DNA of 53,830 nt from positions 1 to 53,830 of the forward strand of contig CAZQLD010000007.1 in NCBI GenBank assembly GCA_964594115.1. Direction: 5' to 3'. The position numbers were made by a program, and so were the translations under genes. The notes under the pieces were generated by a model. The model saw only the letters and a list, made by a program, of their open reading frames with translations, did not search any database and had not been told where the DNA came from. This DNA comes from Candidatus Woesearchaeota archaeon (lineage in GTDB: Archaea > Nanobdellota > Nanobdellia > Pacearchaeales > GW2011-AR1). Below are positions 25,116 to 43,261 of the stretch, in pieces (position 1 is the stretch's first letter; the number at the start of each line of letters is the position of its first letter).

Positions 25116-25116
25116 C

Positions 25117-26927: not shown

Positions 26928-26933
26928 TTAGAA

Positions 26934-27689: not shown

Positions 27690-27691
27690 TT

Positions 27692-27710
27692 TATACATAT
27701 ATTATGTGTT
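27692..27710. promoter_or_regulatory. Imperfect inverted-repeat operator TATACATA-N3-TATGTGTT
   Basis: Matches the perfect palindrome at 31415-31433 with the same spacing; lies between the TATA (about 27728-27737) and the start. Confidence 0.45.
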
Positions 27711-27835
27711 TACTACTCATAAGTAATGTATAAACTTTTGAAAGGAATATAAATATTTTTATTAAACTATATAAACTAGTATAAATATATATACATTTTA
27801 GAAAAGCTTTTAAAGGCTGGTTTCTTAGTTGTTTT

Positions 27836-28519: not shown

Positions 28520-29406
28520 AAAGAAAACTTGTAAAGCAAGGAGCAGCAACAATGATGATTAGCCTGCCCAGCAAATGGATTAAGGCTAATGAGCTTAATA
28601 AGGGAGATGAAATAGAGATAGATGAAAAGCAAAATTCTATTATTATTGGTTTAGGAGGGAAAAAATCTAAAAGACAGACAGAGATGACTCTTGCTTCATC
28701 AACAGAATCTTCAGTAAGAACTATTTTAACTAATGCCTATAGACTTGGTTATGATAAAATAAATCTAAATTTTCAAGATAAAAAAGCATTAAAAATAATA
28801 CAAAATACAGTAAATCATAATTTAATAGGTTTTGAAATAATTAAAAAAACAAATAAAAACTGTGAAATAGAGAATATAACAGAACCTTCTAAAGAGCAAT
28901 TTGATAATATTTTTTCTAAAATATTTCTTAATATAGATGAGTTATTTATAATAGCAGAAAACATGCTGCATGGTAGGAAAAAAGAATTTGAAGAAATAGA
29001 GCAAAAAATACAGCAGTATGATAATTTTTGCAGAAGAGTCATAGCTAAAAATGAGCTTTATGGAATATATCAGCTAAAATGGGCTTTTCATGCTGAACTT
29101 ATACATGCACAAAGAGAGCTTTATTTGTTATTAAAATACTTAGAAAAAAATAAAACAAAAGCAGATAAACTTGTTTTCCAGTTATTAGAAGATTGTAAGA
29201 AAGTATTCAAGATATTGAAACAAGCATATAAAGAGAAAAGCATTGAAAAATTAGAGAAAATTCATGATTTGGAAAAAGAAATGATTTATAAAAAAGGTTA
29301 TTCTTCATTAAAAAAATCAGTGGGCAGGATAGAGGCTCATCATATCCTTGCTGCTATCAGAAACTTCTACCTTGCTTCCTCTCCTTTGATTGGGACTTTT
29401 ATCTAA
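28516..29406 (+). CDS. AbrB-domain/PhoU-like regulator (archaeal phosphate uptake regulator family), copy 1
   Basis: N-terminal RKLVKQGAATMMISLPSKW...GDEIEI swapped hairpin, AYRLGYD, and helical PhoU-like repeats. Confidence 0.85.
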   Translation: MKRKLVKQGAATMMISLPSKWIKANELNKGDEIEIDEKQNSIIIGLGGKKSKRQTEMTLASSTESSVRTILTNAYRLGYDKINLNFQDKKALKIIQNTVNHNLIGFEIIKKTNKNCEIENITEPSKEQFDNIFSKIFLNIDELFIIAENMLHGRKKEFEEIEQKIQQYDNFCRRVIAKNELYGIYQLKWAFHAELIHAQRELYLLLKYLEKNKTKADKLVFQLLEDCKKVFKILKQAYKEKSIEKLEKIHDLEKEMIYKKGYSSLKKSVGRIEAHHILAAIRNFYLASSPLIGTFI

Positions 29407-31239
29407 GTTTTCATTTCCTTGAACTTCCCAGCCAGTACCCCAGTTATTTTTTTTAGGTATTTTATTAAAATCAACATTTCCTTCTTCATCAGTTATCATG
29501 TATAAAGCTAAAGCTGTGTTGATTAATTTCTGTTGATGATAAGGCAAGTAACTTCCATAGCCTGATTCTTTATATCCTCCTGCCCTTTCAACAATTTTCC
29601 ACTTTGGAAAATAATTTATACTTCCTGTTTTTACTTTTGCTGTATTTATTTCTTCAAGGGAAGAAAAATAATTTGTAAAAACATCTGCAATAGTCCCTTG
29701 AGGAACAAAACACTGTTTTAGATACGTTACACCATGAACTACTTTAGCAGTATTATGTGCTATATCTGAATCAGAATTTTCATTTCTTAAAAGGAAGTAT
29801 TTTGGAACAAAACTTGGAAAAAGTCTTTCTTCTTTATCTGCCTTATATGTTTTTATAAGCTCTTTGTTCAGATAGCAAGCTCTTAACCAAGATGAAATAA
29901 GTCTTTTAGGCATTAAATGAATATCTCTTGAAAATCTGGTAAGCTCTTTTATATCTAGCTCTCTTTTTCCAAATTTAACTTCTGGAAGATTTTCTTTTGC
30001 TTTTTCCATATAAGGGACCAGTATTTCAAAAGCAAGATCCTTATTAGAGCTGTCAAGATTATCTAAACTAAAATTTCTATAATCTTCTCTCATTAGAATG
30101 TCCCTTAATCTTGGTCTTGTTTCGCTATTCCTAGCAGTGATTATTCCTCCAGTTACAGCTCCAGCCAGTACTGCTCCTGTGCAAATAGGAACTGAGTATT
30201 TTAGAAATTTAGCAAAAGCTTCTTTTAGTTTTCCAGCTAAACCAGAATTTATTTTTTCAATGTATCTTTTAACATCATACATGTTTCTGATTTCTTTTTT
30301 AGGGTTAATTGTTAAACATCTATAAATTAATTTTTTCCATTCTTTAGGAACTTTATTAAGAGCTTTTTTTAAATTTTTTTCATGTATTTCTTCTGTAATT
30401 TCTTCTAAAAATTTTTCTCCTTCATTTAACTGAACTCTATATAATTTTCCATTAATTCTAATTGACTTTCCAGCAATATCAGAGCAAATCTTGTATTGAA
30501 GGGGGGTTTTTCCTGTTAATGAATATAAGAAGGTTCCGCCAAGAGCATAAACTTCTGTTCTACAGGTTGCCTTAGATGGATGTCCTGAAACTAGGGCATT
30601 AAGCAAGCTAGGATGTGTATATGGTGTTCCTCCTCTTGTAGGCATGATATTTTCATGAATCTCGGTTCTTCTAGCTGCATTTTGTAAGTCAGAGATTTTA
30701 ACATTTCCTGACCTTGTTATAATTATATTTGAAGGTTTAATATCTCTATGCAAAATAAATTGTTCATCATTAAGATACTGTAATGCTCTTACAACTTGTC
30801 CGAATATTTTAATGACTCTCTTTTTATCTTTGAGAGGGCCTGTTGTTTGAATATGAGCTTCTAAGTCTGTTCCTTCATAATAAGCTTCTGCATTTACTGT
30901 CTTTCCGTCTAATCTAAAATTATCAACAACTTCTACAATATTTGGATGCTGTATTTCATTAGAAACATTTACTTCTGCTATATCTCCATCTCTCTTACTT
31001 TTATTTATTAAAGTGCATATTGAATCTGGGTCAATTTCTGTTTTTGGAATTTTTAATACCCTTAGCTTACTAACTTCTCCTGCAGAGTATCTTGCAAGAT
31101 AAGCTTCTCTTGTTTGCCCTTCTCCTAATTTATGCAGGATTTCATAGCCTCTTTCTTTTAATATTCTTGTTTCTTCTTCTGTTAAGCCATTTTCCTGTTC
31201 AATAAGAGTTTCTGCTTTTAATGTATCTGCAAGAATCAT
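29317..31239 (-). CDS. Membrane-anchored Ser/Thr protein kinase 1 with C-terminal ectodomain
   Basis: LGEGQT, VLK, HPNIV, HRDIKPSN, DLQ in place of DFG, GGTPY; TM at about aa 349-369. Confidence 0.9.
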   Translation of the reverse strand: MILADTLKAETLIEQENGLTEEETRILKERGYEILHKLGEGQTREAYLARYSAGEVSKLRVLKIPKTEIDPDSICTLINKSKRDGDIAEVNVSNEIQHPNIVEVVDNFRLDGKTVNAEAYYEGTDLEAHIQTTGPLKDKKRVIKIFGQVVRALQYLNDEQFILHRDIKPSNIIITRSGNVKISDLQNAARRTEIHENIMPTRGGTPYTHPSLLNALVSGHPSKATCRTEVYALGGTFLYSLTGKTPLQYKICSDIAGKSIRINGKLYRVQLNEGEKFLEEITEEIHEKNLKKALNKVPKEWKKLIYRCLTINPKKEIRNMYDVKRYIEKINSGLAGKLKEAFAKFLKYSVPICTGAVLAGAVTGGIITARNSETRPRLRDILMREDYRNFSLDNLDSSNKDLAFEILVPYMEKAKENLPEVKFGKRELDIKELTRFSRDIHLMPKRLISSWLRACYLNKELIKTYKADKEERLFPSFVPKYFLLRNENSDSDIAHNTAKVVHGVTYLKQCFVPQGTIADVFTNYFSSLEEINTAKVKTGSINYFPKWKIVERAGGYKESGYGSYLPYHQQKLINTALALYMITDEEGNVDFNKIPKKNNWGTGWEVQGNENLDKSPNQRRGSKVEVSDSSKDMMSLYPAH

Positions 31240-31403
31240 TTTTCTTCCTCCAATATATCTATTGTAAGTTTAGTTATAGTGCCTGGGCTCAATTGTTTTT
31301 CTAGAATTCTTGGTATGACTATAATTGCCTGGCTACCATGTTTAGCAATTTTCTTTGTTATGATGAACTGCTTTTTATTCTGTTTTACTTTTTCCTTAGT
31401 CAT
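31236..31403 (-). CDS. Small AbrB/SpoVT-type (DUF2080-like) DNA-binding protein
   Basis: IITKKIAKHGSQAIIVIPR...TKLTIDILEE; ATGA overlap with the kinase. Start is 31403 or 31421. Confidence 0.8.
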   Translation of the reverse strand: MTKEKVKQNKKQFIITKKIAKHGSQAIIVIPRILEKQLSPGTITKLTIDILEEEK

Positions 31404-31414
31404 CTTACTGTAGC

Positions 31415-31433
31415 TATACATAAGGTATGTATA
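31415..31433. promoter_or_regulatory. Perfect 8-bp inverted repeat TATACATA-agg-TATGTATA (operator)
   Basis: Directly read; lies between the TATA and the start of the AbrB-kinase unit. Confidence 0.6.
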
Positions 31434-31460
31434 AACTATACAGTAACAACATAAATCACT

Positions 31461-31534: not shown

Positions 31535-31948
31535 TTATTCCAAAGCTTTTTCTAAGAAACTTCTTGCTTCTGGTGAGAGTTCTTTTAAAATAGCATCCTT
31601 AACTTCTGGATTTATTTTTTTTAATCTATCCCTTGTATATGTTATTTCAGGAGATTGCATCACCTTTCCCCATGGATCTTTGTTTTTTCTTACATTTTTA
31701 ATCCAGATATAAAGACTAATTGGATAATGCTCTTCTATTTTATCTCTATGCAGGTGCATTTTTCCAATATTTTGATCTCTAAAATATATTGTCATATATC
31801 TTATAGTCATTGGAGGTTCTAATCCACTAGAAGGATTCCAACCATAAAAACATGTTTTCTCATAATCTATTGACTCTATTTCTGAGTTTCCTCTTATAGG
31901 ATAATCTTCTTTAATTGTAGCATTTCTTTGAACTTCAATTTCTGGCAT
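31535..31948 (-). CDS. Hypothetical protein (last gene of operon C)
   Basis: 137-aa ORF directly after the vWA gene. Confidence 0.65.
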   Translation of the reverse strand: MPEIEVQRNATIKEDYPIRGNSEIESIDYEKTCFYGWNPSSGLEPPMTIRYMTIYFRDQNIGKMHLHRDKIEEHYPISLYIWIKNVRKNKDPWGKVMQSPEITYTRDRLKKINPEVKDAILKELSPEARSFLEKALE

Positions 31949-31968
31949 TTTTATCTTCTTCTTTCATT

Positions 31969-33501
31969 TTACTTTATTGACTTTCTAAGCTCCCCCATTG
32001 TAATATCTCTTATATGGCTTGCTGACCATAAAGGCAAAATTCCTACGTTTTCTTTTGATATTAAAGATGCTGGGATATCGGAATATCCGTGTGGATTTGT
32101 ATAAAATAAATGAACTCTATGGAGATTTGGTATCTTAGAAACATAATTATGAAATTCTTCTAAATTGTTAATTACCATATCAGAGATTACACTTATATCC
32201 ATATACTCTTCATTTCTAATTATTTTTTCTATAATTGAAGGATTAAAAGTTGTTCCTCCATTTTGATATGTTCTTATTTTTTGATGGATTTTTTCTTTAT
32301 TTCTAGAAGGTTTTAGAACAATGTCTGAAGCTGAAAAATTGTAAACAGCAACACTAGAATTATTATCAATATAAGCATTAGCAATAACAGTTCCTCCTAA
32401 AACCGAGGCTGAGATATTCTCATCTGGATTTATCATACTTTCTGAAGAATCTATAACAATCAAACTATTTGGAGTCCCAAAATTTTCTTCCATAACTTCT
32501 CCTTGTTTCTTAACCCATTTTTGAGTTACTCCTGGTAAAATTCCTGGACTTGAAAAACAATCTAAATCATCTATAGTATCTCCCATACTAAATTCTTTAT
32601 GAGAATAAGGGTATAATCCTCCATTTTTTCTCATTTTCCTTTGTCTTATTGGTATAGAATAATTCTCAGCTAAAGCAGAGTAAAAATTTCCTGCAATAAT
32701 CAAATTTCCTTTTTCTGTTCCTGCCCCCAAAACTTCTTTTACTGTTTTTTCAAATTTTCCTGGTTGAGACTCTCTTGCAAATTGTTTAACTCCTTCTCTT
32801 ATCTGGTTTTCAGAAAAAATTGATGCTAGATTAGGATCTGCCCCTTCTCTGATTCCCCCTTCTCCATTTCCTCCTTCCTCTTGCCCTTCTAAATCCTCTA
32901 AATATTCCCTTGTATTTTTAATAAACTTTCTTAAATTTTGCTCTTGTTTTTCTTTATTTAAGTAATTTAGTTTAGATAATTTTCGTATTAAACATTTTTC
33001 TTTGAAATTTAATTTTATTTCCAAATCCTGATTCCATAATTTCTGATAAATTCCAAAAGCAAGTTTCTCTAGACCCTCTACTTCTTTACTTGTAGCCCTT
33101 AAACTAGGAATAAGTGTGTTATATCCCCTATTTGCAAGAAGATTAAGATTATTTTGAATATTAGTAAAAGTTCCTCTTGCTACCTGGGCTTGCTGTTTAT
33201 TTAAACTTTCCCTTGCAACTTTATGTAATTTAAGTAAATTTAGGATACTCCCAGGATAATCTGCAAAATGCCCTACTTCATGACCTAGCATGGCATTTAA
33301 AATAACCTTCTCCTCACAACCTTCTTGTGCAAGTTTTTTAACATAATCTGGATTAATGTCAATTTGTAAATTATTAAAGCTAAATCTTCCATTTGCAATT
33401 TCTTTTGTTAGTCTTGGAGGGGGTAGTTGGGGATAATAAAAGTCCTCTCTAATTTTCCCCCATTCTTTTTTCATTATTTCGTGCAATTTTCCACTTTCCA
33501 T
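31969..33501 (-). CDS. HExxH metallopeptidase-like plus vWA domain protein
   Basis: LGHEVGH, acidic Gly linker, MIDAS IDSSES...GGTT...VISD. Confidence 0.85.
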   Translation of the reverse strand: MESGKLHEIMKKEWGKIREDFYYPQLPPPRLTKEIANGRFSFNNLQIDINPDYVKKLAQEGCEEKVILNAMLGHEVGHFADYPGSILNLLKLHKVARESLNKQQAQVARGTFTNIQNNLNLLANRGYNTLIPSLRATSKEVEGLEKLAFGIYQKLWNQDLEIKLNFKEKCLIRKLSKLNYLNKEKQEQNLRKFIKNTREYLEDLEGQEEGGNGEGGIREGADPNLASIFSENQIREGVKQFARESQPGKFEKTVKEVLGAGTEKGNLIIAGNFYSALAENYSIPIRQRKMRKNGGLYPYSHKEFSMGDTIDDLDCFSSPGILPGVTQKWVKKQGEVMEENFGTPNSLIVIDSSESMINPDENISASVLGGTVIANAYIDNNSSVAVYNFSASDIVLKPSRNKEKIHQKIRTYQNGGTTFNPSIIEKIIRNEEYMDISVISDMVINNLEEFHNYVSKIPNLHRVHLFYTNPHGYSDIPASLISKENVGILPLWSASHIRDITMGELRKSIK

Positions 33502-33502
33502 T

Positions 33503-34537
33503 TTAAGCAGTTATTTTTTCTAAAATCCCTCCAATATATTTTTTAGAATTTCCAAGAAGTTTTGCAAGAGCAAAGAGGTTGTCTCGAGCATTAGAACCTT
33601 TTAAAGATTCTACATAACTAATTGCATTATCTCTATACTTTTCTATTAAATCCGCTGTGGCATTCATTGCTCCAGATTCTACTAATAATTCTGTAAGTCT
33701 AGAAAAATCTCCTTCACCTATCGCACTTCTTACTTTTTCTCCACAACCATTATTAAAAGCATAAACTATAGGATAAGTTAAAATCCCTTTTCTAATATCT
33801 TCATAAGAATTTCTTGATAAGCTTTGTGACCTGCTTCCAATAACTTCTTGAGGAATTAAATCCATTAAGTCATTTCTTATCTGGCATGCAATGCCATAAT
33901 TTCTGCCAAAATTTTTAAGAGCATCTTTGTCACTTTCTGAAGATTTTCCGAATATAGAACAAATTTCAGAAATTTTTTCAGCAGCTACGCCAGCAATAAA
34001 ATAACATCTTTCTAAATAAGAATTCTCACTAAAATCTCCTGTATTTTCATTTTCATCCTGGCCCAAATAAATAGTTTTTAATGTTTCATTCCATAGCCTA
34101 CATACGTCTTCTTTATCTTTTCCTTCTAACTCTGAATTTAATAATATTTCATTAGAAAGTGTATATTGGATAAGGCCTGCAATAATAGCTTTATTTAACC
34201 CATATTTTCTTACAGTACTTGAATCTCCTTCTCTTACTTCTTGATTATCTAAGATATCGTCAATAACATAACAAGAACTTGTTCCTAACTCAAAAGCACT
34301 AAGAACAGGAACTATCTCTTCCCAATTTTTCCCACCTACTGCTTCAAATGCTAGTCTTCCTAAAGTTGGTAAAAGCTTAGGTTTTCCTCTTTTCATTCCG
34401 CACCTTAATGTTGGGAGATGCTTAACAACTTCTCCAAAACCCTGAACATACTCTAAAGTATAAGAATCTACTTTTCTTGCTGTTTCTTTCATATAAGCAA
34501 AAATATCTACTTTTTTCTCAAGGTTTTTTTGTGCCAT
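33503..34537 (-). CDS. Polyprenyl diphosphate synthase family protein (non-canonical motifs)
   Basis: FARM YVIDDILD, GQDE, and second motif QIRNDLMD; GILTYPI. Confidence 0.85.
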   Translation of the reverse strand: MAQKNLEKKVDIFAYMKETARKVDSYTLEYVQGFGEVVKHLPTLRCGMKRGKPKLLPTLGRLAFEAVGGKNWEEIVPVLSAFELGTSSCYVIDDILDNQEVREGDSSTVRKYGLNKAIIAGLIQYTLSNEILLNSELEGKDKEDVCRLWNETLKTIYLGQDENENTGDFSENSYLERCYFIAGVAAEKISEICSIFGKSSESDKDALKNFGRNYGIACQIRNDLMDLIPQEVIGSRSQSLSRNSYEDIRKGILTYPIVYAFNNGCGEKVRSAIGEGDFSRLTELLVESGAMNATADLIEKYRDNAISYVESLKGSNARDNLFALAKLLGNSKKYIGGILEKITA

Positions 34538-35561
34538 TTTTCAAAAAATCTAAATTTTTACATGCAGGGTCTTCTGCTAGAAAATTTCCTGAACGATAAT
34601 AAGCTCTAGATCTACATCCCCCACAATTTTCTTTAACTTGACAGGATCCACAATATCCTTCTAAATTGCTTCTATCTCTAAGCTGGTGTAAAACAGAAGA
34701 ATTTGCAATAATATCTTTAAATCTTTCTTCTCTGACATTTCCCACTTTTAAATCTGGCAAAAAAGTACAAGGAGTAACATCTCCATTTGGTTGTATAGCA
34801 TACATGTCAAATCCTGCCTGACATCCAATAATAATTTCTTTTTTATTTTTCTTACTTAGGCCTTTAGAATTATTTTGTGAGCTTCTATAAAGGGAATATT
34901 TTGCATCAAAGCACCATACTCTTGGGTTGGTATTAGAATTTTCGTAAGCAACTTGAAATATCTCTGTTCTTTGTTCATGAGTAAGATCTTCATGGGGCAT
35001 ACTCTTAGCTCTCCCAATAAGCCTAAAATCAATTAATTCTATTTCATTAACTTTCAGGCTTTTACCAAATTTAATTAGATCTTCTAATTCACCAAAGTTT
35101 CTTTGTGAGAGAGGTATGCTTAACTCAGCTTTTATTTTCTTTTTTCTGAGATTTTTTATTCCTTCTACTACTTTTTCAAAACTTCCTTTTCTCCCCCGAA
35201 CTTTGTCATGTAACTCTGACTTTGTACTATAAAGGCTCACATTAACAATTCCCACTCCTAAATCAGATAATTTTTCAACATTTTCCTCATTAAGAAGAAA
35301 TCCATTTGTTCCCACACAAATAGGTATCTTTTGAGTAGCGTATTTTAAGACCTCCCAGAAATCATCTGCCATCATTGGCTCTCCTCCACTAATTCCAACC
35401 ATTCTTGGTTCAACTTCTTCTAATTGATCTACTAAAACTATTTTCTCATAAGTAGTTAACTCATCTTCTTGTTTAGAGCCAGCATCCTGAGAACAATAAT
35501 CACAATGTAGATTACATTCATTAGTAAAATGCCATACAAGAAAAGGAAATTTGCTTTCCAT
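34518..35561 (-). CDS. Radical SAM/SPASM protein (NirJ/AhbCD/PqqE-like clade)
   Basis: CNLHCDYC, SGGEP, GCQAG...NGDVTPC, and CGSCQVKENCGGCRSRAY. Confidence 0.92.
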   Translation of the reverse strand: MESKFPFLVWHFTNECNLHCDYCSQDAGSKQEDELTTYEKIVLVDQLEEVEPRMVGISGGEPMMADDFWEVLKYATQKIPICVGTNGFLLNEENVEKLSDLGVGIVNVSLYSTKSELHDKVRGRKGSFEKVVEGIKNLRKKKIKAELSIPLSQRNFGELEDLIKFGKSLKVNEIELIDFRLIGRAKSMPHEDLTHEQRTEIFQVAYENSNTNPRVWCFDAKYSLYRSSQNNSKGLSKKNKKEIIIGCQAGFDMYAIQPNGDVTPCTFLPDLKVGNVREERFKDIIANSSVLHQLRDRSNLEGYCGSCQVKENCGGCRSRAYYRSGNFLAEDPACKNLDFLKNGTKKP

Positions 35562-35563
35562 TT

Positions 35564-35968
35564 TTAGAACCCCCTATCTACCTTCACTTCAGATACTACT
35601 TTTTCTAAATCTTTTTTCTTTGCTTTAATATCTTTCTCTCTTCTTTCCCTTGAACCAAATTCATTCTTATAATGAAAGCCTCTTCCATCAGCTGTTTTTC
35701 CATCAATATTAATTGTGTAATAAGTAGAACCCCCACTACAACCAGAAGTTTCATATGACCCTAATTGAATTACTGATTTATTTTTTTCTATAGCATTGCT
35801 ATGCTCAGTAAAATAATCAGGAAGTTTAACAGATTTCCTTGATGTATCAGCTTTTTTTGATTTATTTTGCTTCTTAATTTTTCTTGATATTTCTTCATCT
35901 AGCTCAGCACCAGAATTATAAGTTAACTCAGCTAACTTCAATAAGTTTGAATTAATTTCTTTTGCCAT
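35564..35968 (-). CDS. Hypothetical protein with Ser/Gly/Cys/Tyr-rich core
   Basis: 134 aa, coupled to both neighbours; GSYETSGCSGGSTYY segment. Confidence 0.7.
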   Translation of the reverse strand: MAKEINSNLLKLAELTYNSGAELDEEISRKIKKQNKSKKADTSRKSVKLPDYFTEHSNAIEKNKSVIQLGSYETSGCSGGSTYYTINIDGKTADGRGFHYKNEFGSRERREKDIKAKKKDLEKVVSEVKVDRGF

Positions 35969-35969
35969 T

Positions 35970-37319
35970 TTATTTTAATTCTCCTTGCAAATCTAGAAAT
36001 ATTGGGTGCCCTTTTCCACTAGAAGCATATGTTTCAGCTGCTTTTCTAGCTTTTTCTAACTTTCCTTTTTGTATAAAACTCATAACTGTTTGATAGTTTT
36101 TACTGCTTTCTAAAACTCTTTTTTTAACTCCAGAGATTTCGTCAGTTCCCTCCCTAAGAAGTGTTTTAACTGCATGCAAGGCCAAAGGATCTTCTCTAGT
36201 ATCATCTTTAAATTTATTGATGGTCTCTTCAGTTAATCTTATTCTGTGCCATAAAGCATAAGGTGCAACTGTTAAAACATGCTCTAAATTAGCCTGCTTT
36301 TTACCTTGCAACCATGCTAAAGCTTTAGAATATCTAACTATGCTTTTATCTAATCTTCTACTCCCACTCCCTTTAACTAAATTATATAAATAATGGCCTT
36401 CCTCTGAGCTTATTGGGTCATTACTTCTTTTTTGACCATATTTTGGGTGTTGATTAAGTTCTGAAATTAAAAATCCTAAATAAGTAACAGCATCTCCATC
36501 TAAACCAGTAGATTCAATCTCTTTATCCACAGCAACTAATTCCTGTTCTGTCAAGGTATCCAAATTCCTCTTTTTTAATTCAGCTCCAAAACTATCAGAA
36601 AGTTTTTTTAAACCAGGTGAAATTTCTTCATAAGGTTTTTTAGAATTTAATAAATCTAAAATTTCTCTAGATATTTTAGGATCTTTTAAAATCCCCTCTT
36701 TCCCATTATTCCAACTATTGCTAATAGCAATAGCATTTGATACTCCTGGAAACTTGCTTTCAGTTGCTACATCAAATCTATCTAACAATGGAGGAATTAG
36801 AGTATTGCTTCCTCTATCTTCATAGTTACAAGTTGCAAAAAAAGGCTGTCTTCCTTGGGCAATATGGCTATTCAAATAACCCCACTCTCCCCTATCTACA
36901 CCATCTAATAACATTGATTGATTTGATTCTGGAATTCTATTAAACTCATCAACAAGTTTTGGTTGGATTAAAACAAAATTCTGCCAAATAACTTCTTCTT
37001 GACCTTGATGCATTCTACCATAATCAGGTCTTCCAACTGTCTTCTCCTGAGTTAATTGCGGATTCCCCCTAATAACAGATCTTCTAACAATATCTATAGG
37101 AATATTATGAAAAACGCTATGTAAGTATTCAGCAGAAGTTGTCTTTCCTCCACCATATTCTCCAAATAAAATCTGGTTTCCTTTATTAAGCTCTGTTAAT
37201 ACTCCAAAAAGAAGAGATGAACTAAACTTCTCTCCACCAACAGATAAATCATCCCTACATAGGTAAAAATCATTTTTTATTACCCCATACAAACATAGAA
37301 CTTTATTTTGCAATGCCAT
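35970..37319 (-). CDS. MoxR/RavA-type AAA+ ATPase
   Basis: GEYGGGKTT, LVDEFNR, FATCN and PPLLDRF; likely start MALQNK at 37319. Confidence 0.88.
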   Translation of the reverse strand: MALQNKVLCLYGVIKNDFYLCRDDLSVGGEKFSSSLLFGVLTELNKGNQILFGEYGGGKTTSAEYLHSVFHNIPIDIVRRSVIRGNPQLTQEKTVGRPDYGRMHQGQEEVIWQNFVLIQPKLVDEFNRIPESNQSMLLDGVDRGEWGYLNSHIAQGRQPFFATCNYEDRGSNTLIPPLLDRFDVATESKFPGVSNAIAISNSWNNGKEGILKDPKISREILDLLNSKKPYEEISPGLKKLSDSFGAELKKRNLDTLTEQELVAVDKEIESTGLDGDAVTYLGFLISELNQHPKYGQKRSNDPISSEEGHYLYNLVKGSGSRRLDKSIVRYSKALAWLQGKKQANLEHVLTVAPYALWHRIRLTEETINKFKDDTREDPLALHAVKTLLREGTDEISGVKKRVLESSKNYQTVMSFIQKGKLEKARKAAETYASSGKGHPIFLDLQGELK

Positions 37320-37323
37320 TTTC

Positions 37324-37926
37324 CTACTCCTTCTTAGCTGATTTTTGGGAAGCAATGTAATCAGTTAGGTCTTGACATTTTGTTGCAGCATACAGGAGCT
37401 CGGCGTTTACTTCTGGACGAACTTTACCAAGATTTTCTTTATCCAAATCTACCAATGTTTCACATTTAGAATCTATTTCTGCCACAAGTTCTTTAATTCT
37501 TTCTTCTAATGTTTCGTCTAAACTTACGTAAGCTGCTCGTAGAGATGCCATAGTTGCTACAGAAAGTTGTCCTTCATGATACGCTTTTGCTTTAATTGCT
37601 TGGATGTTTTGTCTTGGTATTTTCCCCTTATATTTAATTATATCAAAATTAGTGAATAATGTTCTCACATCTGGATTAATAGGTTCTCCTAGCTCTGATG
37701 AAGTTTGTAATACATAACCAATTGCACCTTCTTTTGGTAATTCTGAAGCACGATCTGTAATTGTCTTTTTTATTCCGGCAAGGTCAACACCATCCTTATA
37801 TGCATCACGATTTTTTGTTCGTGTTTGGATATTAGCTATTCCACCAATGATCTCAATGGGTTCTCCTGAATCTTCAATGACAAAACCCTTATCTGGGGTT
37901 AAAATAATTTTTTTCAAATTTTCCAT
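37324..37926 (-). CDS. Hypothetical protein
   Basis: 200 aa, tightly coupled in the operon. Confidence 0.7.
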   Translation of the reverse strand: MENLKKIILTPDKGFVIEDSGEPIEIIGGIANIQTRTKNRDAYKDGVDLAGIKKTITDRASELPKEGAIGYVLQTSSELGEPINPDVRTLFTNFDIIKYKGKIPRQNIQAIKAKAYHEGQLSVATMASLRAAYVSLDETLEERIKELVAEIDSKCETLVDLDKENLGKVRPEVNAELLYAATKCQDLTDYIASQKSAKKE

Positions 37927-37928
37927 TT

Positions 37929-38267
37929 TTACAATCCAGCCTCCTTGGCTTTTCTATTATATTTTTCATATTTATCTGAAAAATTTCTAATTAAGGGTCG
38001 CTTACTTGTACGGACATAAACATTTCCTACAGGATTTCCAAGATTCATTGCAACATAACTAGAAATGTAAAGTGTTTGAACTTCAAATCTTCCAAGAGTC
38101 TTAAAATGACGGGATGCTATGGTGTCCTTATAAATAACAAGTTCTTCTCTTCCATCAAAATTTAAAATATCTCTTACCTTAGAAGAACTTGGAAATTTGA
38201 CAACACAATCTAAGGTTTTTGCTTGTCGTATCTTTGATTCTGCTATTTTTTTAGTTTTTTTTGCCAT
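37929..38267 (-). CDS. Hypothetical basic protein
   Basis: 112 aa, in the operon. Confidence 0.65.
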   Translation of the reverse strand: MAKKTKKIAESKIRQAKTLDCVVKFPSSSKVRDILNFDGREELVIYKDTIASRHFKTLGRFEVQTLYISSYVAMNLGNPVGNVYVRTSKRPLIRNFSDKYEKYNRKAKEAGL

Positions 38268-38281
38268 TTTACTTTCTTATT

Positions 38282-38575
38282 TTAGAATATCCCTGCTTTT
38301 TCTTGCAAAGATTGTGGTGTTCCTTTTTTTCTGAATAATTTTACTAATTTGCCTATTTTTTGTGGAAGGTTATATCCAGGGCATTGTTTAGCCAATCTTT
38401 CATTATAAATCTTAGAACCGAAACTAACACTATGTCCACTTATATTCTCTCCATCAAGTTCAAAAGGTTCATTATCTTTAATTTCTGGCGCTGCTACACA
38501 AGGATTTTTAGTCAAAGTACAATACCAACTATTTTTCCTTGGACTTGTATATGCGCAACCTGGTGTTCGACACAT
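38282..38575 (-). CDS. Cys-rich hypothetical protein (possible metal binding)
   Basis: CRTPGC...CTLTKNPC...QCPGY. Confidence 0.65.
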   Translation of the reverse strand: MCRTPGCAYTSPRKNSWYCTLTKNPCVAAPEIKDNEPFELDGENISGHSVSFGSKIYNERLAKQCPGYNLPQKIGKLVKLFRKKGTPQSLQEKAGIF

Positions 38576-38576
38576 T

Positions 38577-38945
38577 TTACTCCTCTCTTGCAGGCTTTAG
38601 ATGTACAATATATTTATTTTCTTCAATCCATACATGATGTAAAGGTTTATTTTCAAAATAAGTAACAGAGAAATGGGGAGTTACTCCTGCAGCGTATTCT
38701 TCAAAGGAAGCAGAAGAATCATATTTTAAAGAAGGCATTTTTTGAACTATGGGAGAAATTTCAGTTACATTTTGGTTGTTAGAGGAATAGCTTACTAAGA
38801 CCTCAAGAAAAGTGTTCATTCTAATAGGTTCTCCTGTTGAATCTACAACCTGGCAATGCTCACTAAATAATTCTAGTCTTTCAGTTAAATCTTTCAATTC
38901 ATTTTCATTATTTACTTTAAAAATTCCTTTAAATTTCACTGTCAT
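38577..38945 (-). CDS. Hypothetical protein
   Basis: 122 aa, TAA-AA-ATG coupled. Confidence 0.65.
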   Translation of the reverse strand: MTVKFKGIFKVNNENELKDLTERLELFSEHCQVVDSTGEPIRMNTFLEVLVSYSSNNQNVTEISPIVQKMPSLKYDSSASFEEYAAGVTPHFSVTYFENKPLHHVWIEENKYIVHLKPAREE

Positions 38946-38947
38946 TT

Positions 38948-39298
38948 TTATCTCTTCAAATATTTACGCAAATTTTCCCAAAAAGAAGGTTTAGAATATT
39001 TTCTTTTTCTTTTTTCTATTTCTGATAATAAAAATTCTCTTGCAGAATCTACTTCTAAAGGACCAAATTGAAAACCAACATAATTTGCTTTGCTAAAATA
39101 ATGTTCATGATACACTTCAAAAGCTTCTTGAGGTTTAGGAAATTTATTACCATAATTATTCCAAAAAGAGTAATCTAAACCAAGTTTATATTTTCTTAAA
39201 GATTCTAGTTTTTCTTCTCTAGATAATTTTCTTAGGTCTCTATCAAGACTTCTCAAAGCATATTCAAGATAAGGTGCTGGTTTCAATTTTTTCGCCAT
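38948..39298 (-). CDS. Uncharacterised helical protein, paralog of 24753-25115
   Basis: PYLEYALRSLDRDL...NYVGFQFGPLEVDSAREFLLSEIEKR. Confidence 0.8.
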   Translation of the reverse strand: MAKKLKPAPYLEYALRSLDRDLRKLSREEKLESLRKYKLGLDYSFWNNYGNKFPKPQEAFEVYHEHYFSKANYVGFQFGPLEVDSAREFLLSEIEKRKRKYSKPSFWENLRKYLKR

Positions 39299-39299
39299 T

Positions 39300-39602
39300 T
39301 TATTTTCCTTCTTCTAATTTATTTACTTCAGCCTGTCTCTTTAATAACTCATAAACATAAACCCCTGCGAGATAAGTCGCAAATCTATCACTACAATATT
39401 CATCTGCAAATCTGTCTAATGCTTTTGTAACTTGGGGATTTGTTGAGGAAAGGTGTCCTGTTAACCTTTCTATATTCTTTAGGACTGATTCGAAACCCTC
39501 TCTGTCAAACTGTTCATTATCTCTAAAAAATAAGTCAATTGTGTCCTGTGCCAGTACAGGCAAGCCCTCTGGTGTGTATCTTTCATTTTTCATTTTCCTC
39601 AC
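39300..39602 (-). CDS. Small helical protein of unknown function
   Basis: GLPVLAQDTI...TNPQV...AGVYVYELLKRQAE; start GTG 39602 or ATG 39593. Confidence 0.75.
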   Translation of the reverse strand: MRKMKNERYTPEGLPVLAQDTIDLFFRDNEQFDREGFESVLKNIERLTGHLSSTNPQVTKALDRFADEYCSDRFATYLAGVYVYELLKRQAEVNKLEEGK

Positions 39603-40331
39603 CTAAAATTTATAGCCAAGACTAACGCCACCCCATGTTTTATCTTTGATAAAATCTTCTTGGCTGTATTGTTTATTTACAGAAATATTCAGATTCCAGT
39701 TTCCTTTATTGAGTCCAAGAGAAACTCCAGGAGTAACCTGGGTATGGCCTGTTTTTCCATAGTAATTCTCTATGACCGAAGTGCTTAGACTAGGGGTTAA
39801 TGAAATATCGGTTTTTCCTAGTTTTCCTATTGGAAATTTTTTTGAAATTCTCCAGTAATATCTATTTCCACTTTTAGGGGTTGTTTTAGTTGGGAGTAAA
39901 TGTGTTAATTCAAAGTCTAAATCAAATTTTCCAGAATAATGGGCTCCAGCTTTCAAAACACTATCATAATCTCCAAAAGTTCCAGAAGGGTAGCCCCAAT
40001 ATTCATATCCTCCTCTTATAGAAAATCTATCTGTTATAGGCAAAGAATGGCTTATTCCAAAATCCCTCTCATTAAAAGCACTTTCTTCATATGAATAATT
40101 CTGCCATACAAATCCAGAGAACATATCATTAAAATTTACATTAATTAAGTCTTGTCTAACCTGTCCTTCAACCATTACACCATGTTTTGCAACATAATCT
40201 GAAACAAGGGCGGTTTCAACATAAATATCTGGCTTTTTCATATTATTAAAACAGCCAGAAACTGCTCCTAATAAAGCAGCTAGTCCGGTTATAGCTGCTT
40301 GTTTTATTCTTGAACTCCATTGGTTTTTCAT
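39603..40331 (-). CDS. Secreted predicted beta-barrel protein (TIGR02001/TorF-like), paralog of 26934-27689
   Basis: Signal with VSGC; VSDYV, NERDF and YWGYP; C-terminal WGGVSLGYKF. Confidence 0.75.
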   Translation of the reverse strand: MKNQWSSRIKQAAITGLAALLGAVSGCFNNMKKPDIYVETALVSDYVAKHGVMVEGQVRQDLINVNFNDMFSGFVWQNYSYEESAFNERDFGISHSLPITDRFSIRGGYEYWGYPSGTFGDYDSVLKAGAHYSGKFDLDFELTHLLPTKTTPKSGNRYYWRISKKFPIGKLGKTDISLTPSLSTSVIENYYGKTGHTQVTPGVSLGLNKGNWNLNISVNKQYSQEDFIKDKTWGGVSLGYKF

Positions 40332-40474
40332 TTTCCTTCCTCTAAAATATCTATTTTGATTTTCACAAGCATCTGGGGTTTGAGATGTCCTGCCAGCACA
40401 CTTGGAATGACGATTACTGCCTGCTTTCCGTGCTTTGCAATTTTCTTTGTTATTATGTATGAGTTTTGTACCAT
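40328..40474 (-). CDS. Small AbrB/SpoVT-type (DUF2080-like) protein, paralog of 31236-31403
   Basis: Manual translation MVQNSYIITKKIAKHGKQAVIVIPSVLAGHLKPQMLVKIKIDILEEGK; ATGA overlap with the barrel gene. Not in the ORF track. Confidence 0.85.
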   Translation of the reverse strand: MVQNSYIITKKIAKHGKQAVIVIPSVLAGHLKPQMLVKIKIDILEEGK

Positions 40475-40534
40475 TTTCCCATAGTCTTTGATTTATTATT
40501 CAAAAGTGACAAAAGAAAGAAATTAATATCTTTC

Positions 40535-40558
40535 TGATATTATTGATATCACTGATAT
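40535..40558. repeat. Three TGATAT direct repeats with 9-bp period in the divergent promoter
   Basis: TGATAT at 40535, 40544 and 40553, just upstream of the BRE/TATA GAAAACCTTAAAAA. Confidence 0.55.
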
Positions 40559-40601
40559 TAAAAATAGAAAACCTTAAAAACCCCTAAATCTTCCATACAG
40601 T

Positions 40602-41510
40602 ATGGAAAGAAGACTCATAAAACAAGGAGGAGGAGGCTTTACTATCTACCTTCCAAAAAAATGGGTAGATAAAAAAGGCCTGCATGAAGGAGACATCGTA
40701 GATGTGAAAGAAATAGATAGTTCTTTGATAATTGGAAGTGAAATTAAAGGGAGAGAAGAGATTATAATAGAGATTAATGAAGAAAATAAAGAAGATATAG
40801 GAGCTATTCTTACACATGCGTATAGAAGAGGATTTAACAGAGTAATATTGAAGGGAGTGGATAGTGGGCTGGCAAGAAAAGCGAGGCAGGTAACAAAAGA
40901 TCTGCTTTTAGGTTTTGAAATAACAGGAAAATCTGAAAAAGAAGTAAAAATAGAAAATATTTCAGAGCCAACAGAACAAAAATATGATGTTATGTTAAGA
41001 AAGATTTTTTTGATAATAAAAGAGACTCAAAATATGATTATTGAAGATTTTCAGCATATTTATGAAAACTGGGATGAAATTGAAGAAATGAGAAAAAATC
41101 AGGATAAGTTTATATTATTTTGCAGAAGATTGCTAATAAAGGAAAAATATGAAAAAGAACCTGTTTTAGAGTGGGAGCTTCTAACTTTTTTAATGCATAT
41201 AGAGCATGCTTATTTTTATTTATATAAATATGCTAAAGAAAATAAAGTTAAGATAGATAAAAATGCTGTGGAGTTATTAAAAAAACTTGAAGAGCAATTT
41301 TCTCTGTATCAGGATGCGTATTTTCATAAAAACATAGAGAATTTGTATAAAATAATGAAGCAAAAGACAAAGTTCCAGTTTGGCAAGTGTTTAGAATTAA
41401 TTGAAAAATCAAAAGGTAAAAATGCAGTTATATCCTCTTATATTAGAGAATTATTCAGGTTGCAACAAATAGGATGCAGCCCTATTTTATCAAAGAATCT
41501 TTCATACTAG
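40602..41510 (+). CDS. AbrB-domain/PhoU-like regulator, copy 2
   Basis: RRLIKQGGGGFTIYLPKKW...GDIVDV, AYRRGF, and QDKFILFCRR. Confidence 0.85.
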   Translation: MERRLIKQGGGGFTIYLPKKWVDKKGLHEGDIVDVKEIDSSLIIGSEIKGREEIIIEINEENKEDIGAILTHAYRRGFNRVILKGVDSGLARKARQVTKDLLLGFEITGKSEKEVKIENISEPTEQKYDVMLRKIFLIIKETQNMIIEDFQHIYENWDEIEEMRKNQDKFILFCRRLLIKEKYEKEPVLEWELLTFLMHIEHAYFYLYKYAKENKVKIDKNAVELLKKLEEQFSLYQDAYFHKNIENLYKIMKQKTKFQFGKCLELIEKSKGKNAVISSYIRELFRLQQIGCSPILSKNLSY

Positions 41511-43121
41511 CTATTTTTTAATTATCTCAAGAGTTTCTTTTATATTTTTTTGGTTTTCTATAAATCTCTGTTCTTGTTCTTTCCTTTTTTCTGCTTCTAT
41601 TCTTTCTTTCTGTTTTTTTGCTTCATATGATTCTCTTGCATTTTTCCAGTCATTTTCAAACTCTCTATATTTATCTGTTCTCATCCGTATCATAATCATA
41701 TCATGATAATTATGAGCTATTTGCCAAATTTCCCAATAAGCTTTAGAGCCCTTTTCTTCTAAAAATGGCTCTATTGTTTTATAATTGAAATCTGTATCAT
41801 TTTTATCCAGTTTAGCATCCATCATTGCTTCAAAAACACCATTGGGGTCAAAATAAGCAGCTAACCCGACTTTTCTGTCCTTGAATTTAAATAAAGCTGC
41901 TTCAAGTTTGCCATCTTCTGTAAAAATATCATAAGGATGGCTAAAAGCTATTCCTAAATCTTCTTTTCCTCTTCTCTGAAGATATAAATTAACTACCTCT
42001 CTTTTCTTTTTAGCTTCTGCATTTTCGTTAAGTTGCTCAACTTTATCTTCCAAAACACCAGTTGCTTTTTGAGTACTAATGAGGCCAGCTGTTGCACCTG
42101 CAAGTATAGTTGCAGCAGCTGCTATGCTTCCATATCTTTTTAGTCTTGAACGTAATGATGTTTTTTTATATTTTTTAATTGCTTTTTCTAAGCCATTTTT
42201 CATTTCTAAACCATTTTTATATCTTCTTACTGGATTTAGGGATAAGGATTTTTCCAAAAAACTTCTAAAAGCTCTTGGAACATTTTTTATTTTTTGGGAA
42301 AGTTCTCTTTGGTTTGTTTTAAACCCTTGATAAACTCTTTTTTTAGTGAGCATTTCATAGAATATAGAGCCTAGACTCCAAACATCTGCTCTTGAACTGG
42401 GCTCAGCATTTTCTTCAAAAACTTCAGGAGCTCTATAGTTTTTATCTCCATGAGGCCCCCTTTTACTTCCATTTCCTCCAATTGAAATGCAGGTAGTAGA
42501 ACCAAAATCACCTAAATAAGCTCTCCCATCGTTAATAAGGATGTTTGAAGGCTTGACATCGCTATGAGCCTCTCTATGTTCGTGTATGTAAGCAAGCGCC
42601 TCTGTAATATCTTTTATTATTTTTATATTTTCATCCAAGCTTAAACTATGCAACCTACTAGAAAGGTCTCCTTCTTCATAAACAGGCATAGCAATATACA
42701 TTTTTCCTTTTCTATCTCTTTCTATAATTCTTGGAACAACATGGCTATGAGCAGCATAAAGAGGAATCGCTTCTCTCCTCATAACATCTTCTTCTGTCCA
42801 TTTTCTGTCCTCCATTTGTTTTTTTGCTGTTTCATTAGGACTAAATATTTTTATAGCCCATTTTTGATCTCCCGCATCTATATATTCATCTACAATCCCC
42901 CAACAACCATACCCTAATTCTTTCCCAGTTGGCTTAAATGTATCGCTATCTATATACTCTGTAACTGCTCTTTCTCTTTGTTCCTTTATCGCGAAAAGAT
43001 TTTCTCTATTTTGAGTAAAAAATTTCCTTTTATATTCTCTATTCTTCTCTTTCATACCTCTTATAGCTGCATCTACAACAACTTCAGAACTTGCACCTAC
43101 TAAATATTTAAGATTACTCAT
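41511..43121 (-). CDS. Membrane-anchored Ser/Thr protein kinase 2 with C-terminal ectodomain
   Basis: LGYGCWG, AIK, HSDVKPSN, DFG, YRAPE and DVWSLG; TM at about aa 331-349. Confidence 0.92.
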   Translation of the reverse strand: MSNLKYLVGASSEVVVDAAIRGMKEKNREYKRKFFTQNRENLFAIKEQRERAVTEYIDSDTFKPTGKELGYGCWGIVDEYIDAGDQKWAIKIFSPNETAKKQMEDRKWTEEDVMRREAIPLYAAHSHVVPRIIERDRKGKMYIAMPVYEEGDLSSRLHSLSLDENIKIIKDITEALAYIHEHREAHSDVKPSNILINDGRAYLGDFGSTTCISIGGNGSKRGPHGDKNYRAPEVFEENAEPSSRADVWSLGSIFYEMLTKKRVYQGFKTNQRELSQKIKNVPRAFRSFLEKSLSLNPVRRYKNGLEMKNGLEKAIKKYKKTSLRSRLKRYGSIAAAATILAGATAGLISTQKATGVLEDKVEQLNENAEAKKKREVVNLYLQRRGKEDLGIAFSHPYDIFTEDGKLEAALFKFKDRKVGLAAYFDPNGVFEAMMDAKLDKNDTDFNYKTIEPFLEEKGSKAYWEIWQIAHNYHDMIMIRMRTDKYREFENDWKNARESYEAKKQKERIEAEKRKEQEQRFIENQKNIKETLEIIKK

Positions 43122-43261
43122 TTTCTATCCTCCAGAATTTCATTTAATGCAAATTCAAATGCATGACTTCTGTTTCTAAATTTTCTTTTTAAAATAGATT
43201 CATCTACCTTTGCTAGAGTTTCTTCATCAACTGAAACACTAATCTTGGATTTTTTTGCCAT
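43118..43261 (-). CDS. Ribbon-helix-helix (CopG/Arc/MetJ-like) regulator, 47 aa
   Basis: Manual translation MAKKSKISVSVDEETLAKVDESILKRKFRNRSHAFEFALNEILEDRK; ATGA overlap with kinase 2. Not in the ORF track. Confidence 0.85.
   Translation of the reverse strand: MAKKSKISVSVDEETLAKVDESILKRKFRNRSHAFEFALNEILEDRK

Follow-up and report, generated by a model that had tools for sequence, protein, structure and literature searches.

The stretch of DNA analysed here (the window) comprises 53,830 nucleotides of contig CAZQLD010000007.1 (assembly GCA_964594115.1), assigned to a Candidatus Woesearchaeota archaeon, a tiny member of the DPANN archaea recovered from salt-marsh metagenomes. Its G+C content is approximately 30%, and among its other products are glycolytic enzymes, glycosyltransferases, and one subunit of a NiFe hydrogenase. 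Positions 31,535 to 40,474 are occupied by 14 co-directional open reading frames (ORFs; g01-g14, Table 1), all on the minus strand and separated by -4, 0, 1, 2, 1, 14, 2, 4, 1, 2, -20, 1, and 20 nt. An initial annotation, made from the letters alone, had read this run as a single 14-gene operon linking a barrel protein to a MoxR/von Willebrand factor A (vWA) pair with biosynthetic enzymes nested inside. The one-strand run stands as described, with gaps of -20 to +20 nt; the 14-gene system is not a conserved entity. The conserved unit consists of g09, g10, g11, g12, and g13 only, and the catalytic motifs are intact in all five of its proteins.

Gene calls on an independent Logan contig are identical to those of the window, and four further salt-marsh runs yielded contigs collinear with it over the g13/g12/g11/g10/g09 junctions, differing by a few single-nucleotide polymorphisms only. 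Because these independent contigs agree over the central junctions, the 14-ORF locus is not an assembly chimera. For g09, homologues and the gene call at locus L001 (6183-7532, 449 aa; numbers beginning with L are our locus identifiers) agree on the ATG at 37,319 (449 aa), and a TTG at 37,355 was rejected as the start on these grounds. The length of g03 is 97-100 aa, set by start codon choice. Neither tRNAs nor Rfam elements were found in the window.

Table 1. Genes of the minus-strand run, conserved unit first (window coordinates).
Gene	Product	Position	Strand	Length and features
g09	MoxR-class AAA+ ATPase	35970..37319	-	449 aa; Walker A 37137-37163, Walker B/DEFNR 36927-36959
g10	Candidate tagged client or precursor	35564..35968	-	134 aa; tag INSNLLKLAELTYNS 35912-35956, SGCSG 35732-35746
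g11	Radical SAM/SPASM enzyme	34518..35561	-	347 aa; CxxxCxxC 35493-35516
g12	Polyprenyl-synthase-fold enzyme	33503..34537	-	344 aa; DDILD 34247-34261, NDLMD 33860-33874
g13	Putative zincin-like HExxH and vWA fusion	31969..33501	-	510 aa; HEVGH 33268-33282, MIDAS DSSES 32437-32451
g01	Basic protein, operon head	40328..40474	-	48 aa
g02-g08	Apparent lineage-specific insert	37324..40331	-	242-aa lipobox protein and six proteins of 100, 116, 122, 97, 112, and 200 aa
g14	Protein without tag	31535..31948	-	137 aa; not conserved at related loci

In Pfam, g09 matches AAA_lid_2 at 32.5 bits, above the cut-off of 22.7, and AAA_5 at 18.1 bits, under the cut-off of 22. Its Walker A motif reads GEYGGGKTT and its Walker B/DEFNR motif VDEFNRIPE; across 18 homologues K59/T60, E125, N165 (sensor-1), and R181 (Arg finger) are invariant or nearly so. 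Profile comparison matched the solved structures of MoxR (2r44, 2e-7) and BchI (1e-4), and 2r44, ChlI, and RavA head the Foldseek ranking for the AlphaFold2 model, of which only the ranking is informative, the TM-scores being low because the core of the model is poorly predicted (pLDDT 67). Motifs, AAA_lid_2 match, nearest structures, and vWA partner all fit, and g09 is a MoxR-class AAA+ protein of the helix-2-insert clade. It has 236 detectable homologues with 44-78% identity, and all those bearing names come from DPANN archaea (Woesearchaeota, Pacearchaeota, and Nanoarchaeota).

The product of g13 appears to join a zincin-like peptidase domain to a vWA domain. In 16 homologues H74, E75, and H78 are invariant together with P83-G84-S85, as is a complete metal ion-dependent adhesion site (MIDAS; DxSxS..T..D), formed by D351, S353, S355, T417, and D441. 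The Pfam VWA_2 match is weak in all 16 family members (best 1.4e-5), and g13 itself scores 19.4 bits against a cut-off of 27. No PDB sequence match to g13 was found, and Pfam detected no DUF2201-type relationship. For comparison, 37 genome loci were collected along with eight metagenome contigs that encode the AAA+ proteins most similar to g09 (72% identity), giving 45 loci in all. In 23 of the 37 genome loci the AAA+ gene is followed by a HExxH-vWA gene; the remaining 14 have either a contig end no more than 2.5 kb from the AAA+ gene or an incomplete AAA+ gene. The AAA+ and HExxH-vWA proteins are true partners, widespread in DPANN archaea.

ORF clustering revealed a common plan at these loci: a ribbon-helix-helix protein of approximately 48 aa, the AAA+ gene, one to eight genes for proteins of 150-380 aa, the HExxH-vWA gene, and more such genes; a reverse transcriptase adjoins 13 loci. 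The proteins encoded between AAA+ and vWA, here called clients, belong to unrelated families, among them three lectin-fold-like classes, one leucine-rich repeat (LRR) class, and several unassigned ones, and nearly all of them start with one common N-terminal motif (the tag). Type 1 of this motif reads M-(P/V)-N-(P/K)-R-F-L-x-(T/L)-A-E-R-W-x-N, and type 2 (K)-I-N-P-N-L-(I/L)-K-L-A-E-(L/Q)-T-(H/Y)-N-P. Cargo classes bearing the tag are the C-type lectin (CLec) types c1/c6/c10, the LRR class c7, and also c8, c13, c70, and g10. A hidden Markov model (HMM) of the leader gave 73 matches (E<0.01) in approximately 50 loci, every one of them on the strand of the AAA+ gene, 62 downstream of it, and 71 starting 1-5 residues after a Met. 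Where enough sequence was present, a tagged ORF followed the AAA+ stop directly (33 of 42 loci).

Tagged genes at L004, L036, and L018 carry at their 3' ends the partner of an inverted template repeat that lies beside the reverse transcriptase, and 96 of the 97 mismatches between template and variable repeats (TR and VR) fall at TR adenines. Adenine-specific TR/VR mismatch is the defining signature of mutagenic retrohoming by diversity-generating retroelements (DGRs), and the tagged proteins at these three loci are DGR targets. Neither a reverse transcriptase nor a lectin-fold target was found in the window itself.

A further link between ATPase and clients is provided by gene fusion. In two independent metagenome-assembled genomes (MAGs), the AAA+ ORF is approximately 700 aa long and fused C-terminally to a client homologue (L032:4059-6161 and L037:10001-12082). 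The last 250 residues of the two fusions match a stand-alone tagged protein encoded after the AAA+ gene at L020 (1941-2690) with E-values of 2e-19 and 5e-25, and a tag-like stretch is retained at the junction. These fusions constitute Rosetta-stone evidence that AAA+ proteins and tagged clients act together. The same three loci also encode, in divergent orientation, a protein family of 113-133 aa (L020:127-528, L032:3635-3976, and L037:9515-9862 on the minus strand) with a conserved C-terminus, ...(S/T)(L/I)T(D/S)LF, possibly a tag at this end or a site of processing; beside it, L032 and L037 share a protein of approximately 530 aa.

Several other features of the tagged arrays were observed. 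The largest, at L044:1895-7402, holds at least eight tandem tagged paralogues (225-264 aa) after the AAA+ gene, with nearly identical N-terminal tags and hypervariable C-terminal ends. At L004 a 63-nt repeat coding for the tag is 100% identical in two genes. A small tagged family with the motif YECGxWxW, in which no DGR signature was seen, forms another client class; it precedes the g10-like gene at L048 (2-274) and also occurs at L026 and, in five tandem copies, at L027. One AAA+ cluster, P0011, is carried by 12 contigs from different assemblies, and all four that were inspected (L040-L043) break 60-170 nt past the AAA+ stop, inside the tag of the next gene. Contigs break there because the tags repeat and the paralogues form arrays, and such systematic breaks will hide these systems in MAG surveys.

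In the window the tag is found on g10, which starts 1 nt after the AAA+ stop with the N-terminus MAKEINSNLLKLAELTYNSG and is laid out as an N-terminal tag, a K/E-rich linker, and a conserved core of approximately 85 residues with a single invariant Cys (SGCSG). It is the sole window match to a leader HMM built without g10 (E 0.012, at the ORF N-terminus); the radical SAM enzyme and the synthase carry no tag. Alignment of the g10 tag with lectin-fold-like proteins of L002 gave 68% identity over 19 aa (E 0.004) and 52% over 25 aa (E 0.001), and nothing else in these L002 proteins matches the window. The g10 tag is of the INxNLLKLAELTYN type, as are those of the tagged proteins beside the closest AAA+ relatives (L002, L003, and L044). 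The g10 homologue at L048, 56% identical in the core, carries instead a tag of the VNKRFIELAKRQMN type, the same as that of its own neighbours. Because the tag type thus follows the locus and not the cargo, the tag belongs to the local AAA+/vWA engine and the core to the cassette of g10, radical SAM, and synthase genes.

An exhaustive phmmer search of 1.84 billion representative proteins returned three true relatives of g10, and a fourth match, a BspA-type LRR protein, was judged spurious. The core is conserved at L048, L047, and P0209 (LPxY, SGCSG, GxTxxGxGFxY, and DLEKxV), with Cys77 and Tyr52/84/100 of g10 as conserved candidate acceptors. The genes for the g10-like protein, the radical SAM enzyme, and the synthase are adjacent in the window, at L047, and at L048/L049, with g10 directly upstream and 2-8 nt gaps or overlaps; a fourth contig, P0209, on which the g10 relative sits between two cut genes within 1.4 kb, probably carries the same trio. 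At L047 the order is an AAA_5 protein (434 aa), a g10-like protein (134 aa), the radical SAM enzyme (48% identity), the synthase (39%), and a 582-aa protein with FEHEAGH and MDRSGSM motifs. The AAA+ and vWA proteins of L047 are tied to those of the window by profile comparison only (E 3e-4 and 2e-3), so the identical order indicates that the five-gene arrangement survived very deep divergence. A kinase-like fragment was also noted upstream of the L047 AAA+ gene. L048/L049 show a tagged protein, a g10-like protein (56% in the core), the radical SAM enzyme (68%), the synthase (64%), and another tagged protein. Among 5.8 billion proteins, g11 has two close relatives (68% and 48% identity), both encoded beside g10-like and synthase genes; neither the radical SAM enzyme nor the synthase was found in any of the 37 genome loci or on any of the eight contigs. 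The initial annotation had made its operon reading depend on such MoxR-vWA pairs sometimes co-occurring with the two enzymes; in the gene neighbourhoods such co-occurrence was found, since L047 has all five genes in order and L048/L049 have the trio inside a tagged-protein array.

The assignment of g11 is secure at the family level, with Pfam matches to Radical_SAM (91.5 bits, cut-off 29.5) and SPASM (45.1 bits, cut-off 21.5; residues 247-308), Cys 16/20/23 in CNLHCDYC, and seven further Cys at 247-334. Among solved structures, those of the peptide maturases SkfB, CteB, PqqE, and SuiB come nearest to it. As the matches to SkfB, CteB, and SuiB begin at residue ~100-130 of those chains, g11 lacks an N-terminal extension. 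The g12 protein matches polyprenyl_synt in Pfam (87.6 bits) and scores far under the cut-offs of all NCBIfam equivalogs. Its first aspartate-rich motif (FARM), DDILD, is intact; in place of the second (SARM) it has a pseudo-SARM, NDLMD, and NDxxD is invariant in all three family members. When aligned to the geranylgeranyl diphosphate (GGPP) synthase 1wy0, DDVLD becomes NDLxD and GKT becomes (I)AG with loss of the lysine; thus g12 lacks both the SARM and the GKT lysine of chain-elongating trans-isoprenyl diphosphate synthases. A FARM combined with a pseudo-SARM "NDXXX" is the hallmark that separates ComQ, PalQ, and StheQ from chain-elongating synthases, and the pseudo-SARM Asn has been reported to be important for acceptor prenylation (PMC10853753; bioRxiv 10.64898/2026.08.29.745113). 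This pair of motifs, DDILD and NDLMD, is present in g12. The ComQ family is also recognised by a precursor encoded close by, in which the acceptor Trp is located toward the C-terminus; g10 contains no Trp. Most likely, g11 and g12 modify the g10 core around the SGCSG loop. The names first given to the enzymes are retained: MoxR AAA+ for g09 (AAA_lid_2, Walker A/DEFNR, and 2r44/BchI/ChlI/RavA as nearest relatives), radical SAM-SPASM and polyprenyl synthase fold for g11 and g12 (Pfam), and, by motif (invariant HExxH, complete MIDAS), HExxH-vWA for g13; the proposed MoxR-vWA partnership was likewise confirmed by the 23 loci above.

The reading that we favour, which could equally well prove right or wrong, is that an engine of AAA+, vWA, and peptidase, peculiar to DPANN archaea, handles tagged clients, and that here the client g10 is, in addition, modified by the radical SAM enzyme and prenylated. 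Clients would be marked by a short amphipathic N-terminal tag followed by a flexible linker and encoded beside the engine; in most lineages they would be arrays of DGR-diversified C-type-lectin-fold proteins, LRR proteins, and other domains, and here g10 only. By analogy with Midasin and with bacterial MoxR-vWA ternary systems, the vWA/AAA+ pair would grip the tag, ATP hydrolysis would remodel the client or pass it on, and the HExxH domain would then cut off the tag. On g10, the radical SAM/SPASM enzyme, which lacks a RiPP recognition element (RRE), may introduce a Cys-centred cross-link or oxidation, and the ComQ-like synthase-fold enzyme may attach a prenyl group, the product being a lipidated, processed protein. 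We infer all of these binding, cleavage, and modification steps from gene content and motifs. The system could act in contacts with surfaces or a host, or in conflict and defence.

A number of observations weigh against this scheme. The cassette is seen in just three or four lineages, and two scans of JGI metagenomes with g10 and synthase family patterns yielded no further example. The acidic residue of the tag (LAE) varies, with LAQ, LAK, and LAN also occurring; since it is not invariant, simple Glu capture by the MIDAS site is doubtful. With the leader HMM, this motif could not be recognised in the leader at L047. ComQ-type enzymes prenylate Trp, of which g10 has none and the g10 family none that is conserved. 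The best NCBIfam scores of g11 are to the tetrapyrrole-modifying families NirJ2 (219 bits) and AhbD (212 bits), each against a cut-off of 500; at under half of the cut-off, they do not identify g11 as a NirJ/AhbD heme-pathway equivalog. The peptidase part of g13 is suggested by HExxH and PGS along with only faint SprT-like, M48, and M76 Pfam matches in its family; no third zinc ligand was identified, and the single-sequence AlphaFold2 model (pLDDT 34.5) is unusable. Finally, none of the runs containing the locus is RNA.

That the system serves conflict is a specific and, in our view, unlikely alternative. It would then correspond, in DPANN archaea, to the MoxR-vWA ternary systems of bacteria, with the mechanics of the favoured scheme unchanged; DGR-diversified lectin-fold proteins would be tag-docked sensors of invaders, the peptidase the trigger, and g10 a toxin or signal effector matured by the radical SAM enzyme and a prenyltransferase. 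The list of parts is that known from bacteria (MoxR, vWA, DGR-FGS/CLec, zincin with a small protein, and radical SAM with a peptide effector; PMC7159879, PMC10907252), client content changes fast among close relatives, and the cassette is patchy and rare. Bacterial systems of this kind, however, are reported to be enriched in multicellular bacteria, and DPANN DGRs have been described as not tied to conflict domains (PMC10907252). With its glycolysis genes and hydrogenase, the window is an ordinary piece of chromosome, and it contains no known effector domain, PADLOC match, or viral-contig match. Nor did Pfam and PADLOC, used without a VMAP-specific profile, detect a VMAP protein, and the gene maps contain no conserved third large protein. 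A mobile element or virus was rejected as well: PHROGs gave a generic clamp-loader match on the AAA+ protein only, and no viral relatives of g08 or the AAA+ protein were found.

Two other readings place the enzymes, not g10, at the centre. In one, which we regard as quite improbable, they make a small molecule, an isoprenoid- or tetrapyrrole-like metabolite or lipid, with g10 as a carrier, scaffold, or immunity protein, or else they are housekeeping enzymes that just happen to be encoded in the operon. The preference of g11 for NirJ2/AhbD, the archaeal GGPP synthases that are the best structural relatives of g12, a GHMP kinase 3 kb away, and the resemblance of the AAA+ protein to chelatase motors are all compatible with this, but the trio is inherited together with g10 directly upstream in every lineage, the pseudo-SARM and lost GKT lysine argue against chain elongation, and the window has neither a CobN/BchH-like subunit nor tetrapyrrole genes; for housekeeping enzymes, the family is far too rare. 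In the other, put forward in the initial annotation, the radical SAM enzyme, the synthase, or both are clients of a MoxR/vWA chaperone that matures their metal cofactors or puts these in place. Such roles of MoxR-vWA proteins are established in CoxD/E, NorQ/D, and chelatases (PMC7159879), the radical SAM enzyme requires three Fe-S clusters, and both enzymes are encoded between the pair. Nothing found here supports the role, and we consider it very improbable: all 45 related loci have the pair without either enzyme and with tagged proteins instead, the enzymes are untagged, the L048 cassette lies between tagged proteins rather than between AAA+ and vWA genes, and the invariant HExxH points to proteolysis. 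The more general idea that the genes between the pair are clients or partners survives for g10, which is tagged and sits in a slot that holds client genes elsewhere, and not for the two enzymes, untagged and absent at the 45 loci. Gas-vesicle (GvpN), chelatase (CobS/T, BchI/D), and encapsulin-cargo readings, prompted partly by weak NCBIfam matches, were rejected, as no Gvp, CobN/BchH, or encapsulin gene is present and the neighbourhood points elsewhere.

Outside the conserved unit, g01 heads the run. The label AbrB, which it had received at first, has no Pfam support (no match even at E<=5). It is 60% identical to a protein abutting the AAA+ gene in the archaeon AR20 (L034) and 63% identical to a 61-aa protein heading the neighbouring kinase operon; at 19 other loci a ribbon-helix-helix protein occupies its position, directly abutting the AAA+ gene. 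From these resemblances, g01 is a probable small DNA-binding regulator. Upstream of g01, the intergenic region (40520-40570, minus strand) between it and a divergent gene with an AbrB domain has A/T-rich TATA-like boxes and a repeat, aatatcagtgatatcaataatatcagaaagatatt, that is a candidate operator.

The intervening genes g02-g08 have no Pfam, NCBIfam, PADLOC, or PHROGs match, gave no tblastn match in the 37 genome loci, and were found neither at L047/L048 nor on the eight contigs; g14 is likewise absent from all of these loci and matches no known family. Since the regulator directly abuts the AAA+ gene at the 19 ribbon-helix-helix loci and in AR20, g02-g08 look like a lineage-specific insert, probably co-transcribed; no flanking repeats surround it. 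The barrel proposed for g02 was not confirmed: a lipobox (LLGAVSGC), a C-terminal YKF, and a slight beta lean in a crude beta-moment analysis were found, with no match in Pfam, NCBIfam, or the PDB. Paralogues of g02 (26934-27698; 30% identity, lipobox, GYGF end) and g04 (24753-25130; 41%) occur at 24062-27698 on the minus strand, in a second cluster of five genes whose beta-rich products bear a signal peptide or a lipobox, along with signal-peptide-bearing beta-rich proteins of 395 and 208 aa and a 238-aa protein. Lipoproteins resembling outer-membrane proteins are unexpected for a DPANN archaeon.

The run is flanked by a repeated module (28516-31421 and 40602-43261) composed of a large protein with an AbrB/MazE domain (296 or 302 aa), a small regulator, and a Ser/Thr kinase (640 or 536 aa). 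The large proteins (28516-29406 and 40602-41510) match MazE_antitoxin/AbrB in Pfam, and their genes are divergent or convergent to the regulator-kinase genes; the regulators are AbrB-like (61 aa, 31236-31421) and ribbon-helix-helix (43118-43261). A 24-nt element common to 27713-27736 and 31414-31437 (83% identical; minus strand AGTTTATACAT...) immediately precedes both the cluster with the g02 paralogue and the operon of the small regulator and kinase; it is probably a common archaeal promoter box. Farther away, a 267-aa protein at 4036-4839 on the plus strand, adjoining GAPDH, PGK, and PGI, matches the Zot-family (PF05707) P-loop ATPases.

MoxR-vWA systems tied to DGRs and to peptide-modifying modules are already known in bacteria (Kaur, Burroughs, Iyer & Aravind 2020, PMC7159879; Dore et al. 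2024, PMC10907252). With these ternary systems (VMAP and FtsH subtypes, PMC7159879; DGR-linked, PMC10907252), the DPANN loci share MoxR, a MIDAS-bearing vWA, DGR-diversified C-type-lectin/FGS domains, and accessory modules of a zincin, here putative, and small protein; one bacterial subtype has a radical SAM enzyme and a stand-alone peptide, and capture of the peptide by vWA with remodelling by MoxR has been proposed. Unlike them, they reside in DPANN archaea and not in multicellular bacteria, a third component of the VMAP or FtsH kind was not found, the putative zincin is fused to the vWA, and the lectin-fold proteins, unfused to vWA, stand alone and share a tag; up to eight or more interchangeable clients accompany one engine, the cassette includes a ComQ-like enzyme, and known effector domains are absent. 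Midasin (Rea1) with Rsa4/Ytm1, RavA-ViaA, and ATV p618/p892 likewise combine an AAA+ protein of the same clade with a MIDAS domain, which grips a short client element and lets it go upon ATP hydrolysis (PMC7159879). In contrast, clients here are set by a linear N-terminal tag and are hypervariable, and a putative peptidase is built into the vWA partner.

The two enzymes of the cassette also have partial counterparts. By motif, g12 resembles ComQ/PalQ/StheQ in its DDxxD and Asn-first pseudo-SARM (N215/D216/D219 in StheQ; PMC10853753; bioRxiv 10.64898/2026.08.29.745113), and, as in ComQ/ComX, its gene lies near that of a small ribosomal precursor, which presumably loses its N-terminal part. It differs in being archaeal, in its precursor (126-134 aa, lacking a conserved Trp and with a core that looks folded), in the radical SAM/SPASM gene between precursor and transferase, and in lacking a ComP/ComA sensor pair. 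With SkfB, CteB, SuiB, and PqqE, g11 shares CxxxCxxC, a Cys-rich SPASM domain, and a neighbouring precursor-like gene, here with a single invariant Cys; unlike them, it has no N-terminal RRE or leader-binding domain and scores higher to NirJ2/AhbD. As many leader-bearing proteins have no radical SAM partner, the leader probably serves the AAA+/vWA engine and not the radical SAM enzyme. In the literature covered, which did not extend to Paul et al. 2017, no earlier description was found of the DPANN form with a putative zincin-vWA fusion, the shared client tag, the interchangeable client arrays, the AAA+-client fusions, or the cassette of g10, radical SAM, and ComQ-like enzymes.

DPANN archaea are abundant, mostly uncultured, and thought to be host-dependent. 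Their DGR-diversified proteins are striking, and to our knowledge their deployment and function have been unexplained since their discovery; the DGR literature views the targets as host- or surface-binding proteins. The tag, its dedicated pair of ATPase and vWA/peptidase, and the natural fusion provide a concrete hypothesis for how such proteins are deployed. Isoprenylation of archaeal proteins has been observed but, to the best of our knowledge, not genetically assigned. It is a tentative possibility that both gaps meet at this locus, in that DPANN archaea would possess a general address-tag engine whose clients include DGR-diversified lectin-fold proteins, and that the window holds the first genetically defined route of archaeal protein prenylation. 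If so, a ComQ-like transferase and a radical SAM maturase would act on a tagged 134-aa protein to give a lipid-anchored or secreted product. The variant in the window could reveal enzymes of archaeal protein isoprenylation as well as new post-translational chemistry, in which a radical SAM step is combined with prenylation, by a ComQ-like enzyme, of a residue other than Trp. The locus also carries the MoxR-vWA ternary theme beyond multicellular bacteria into the smallest archaea.

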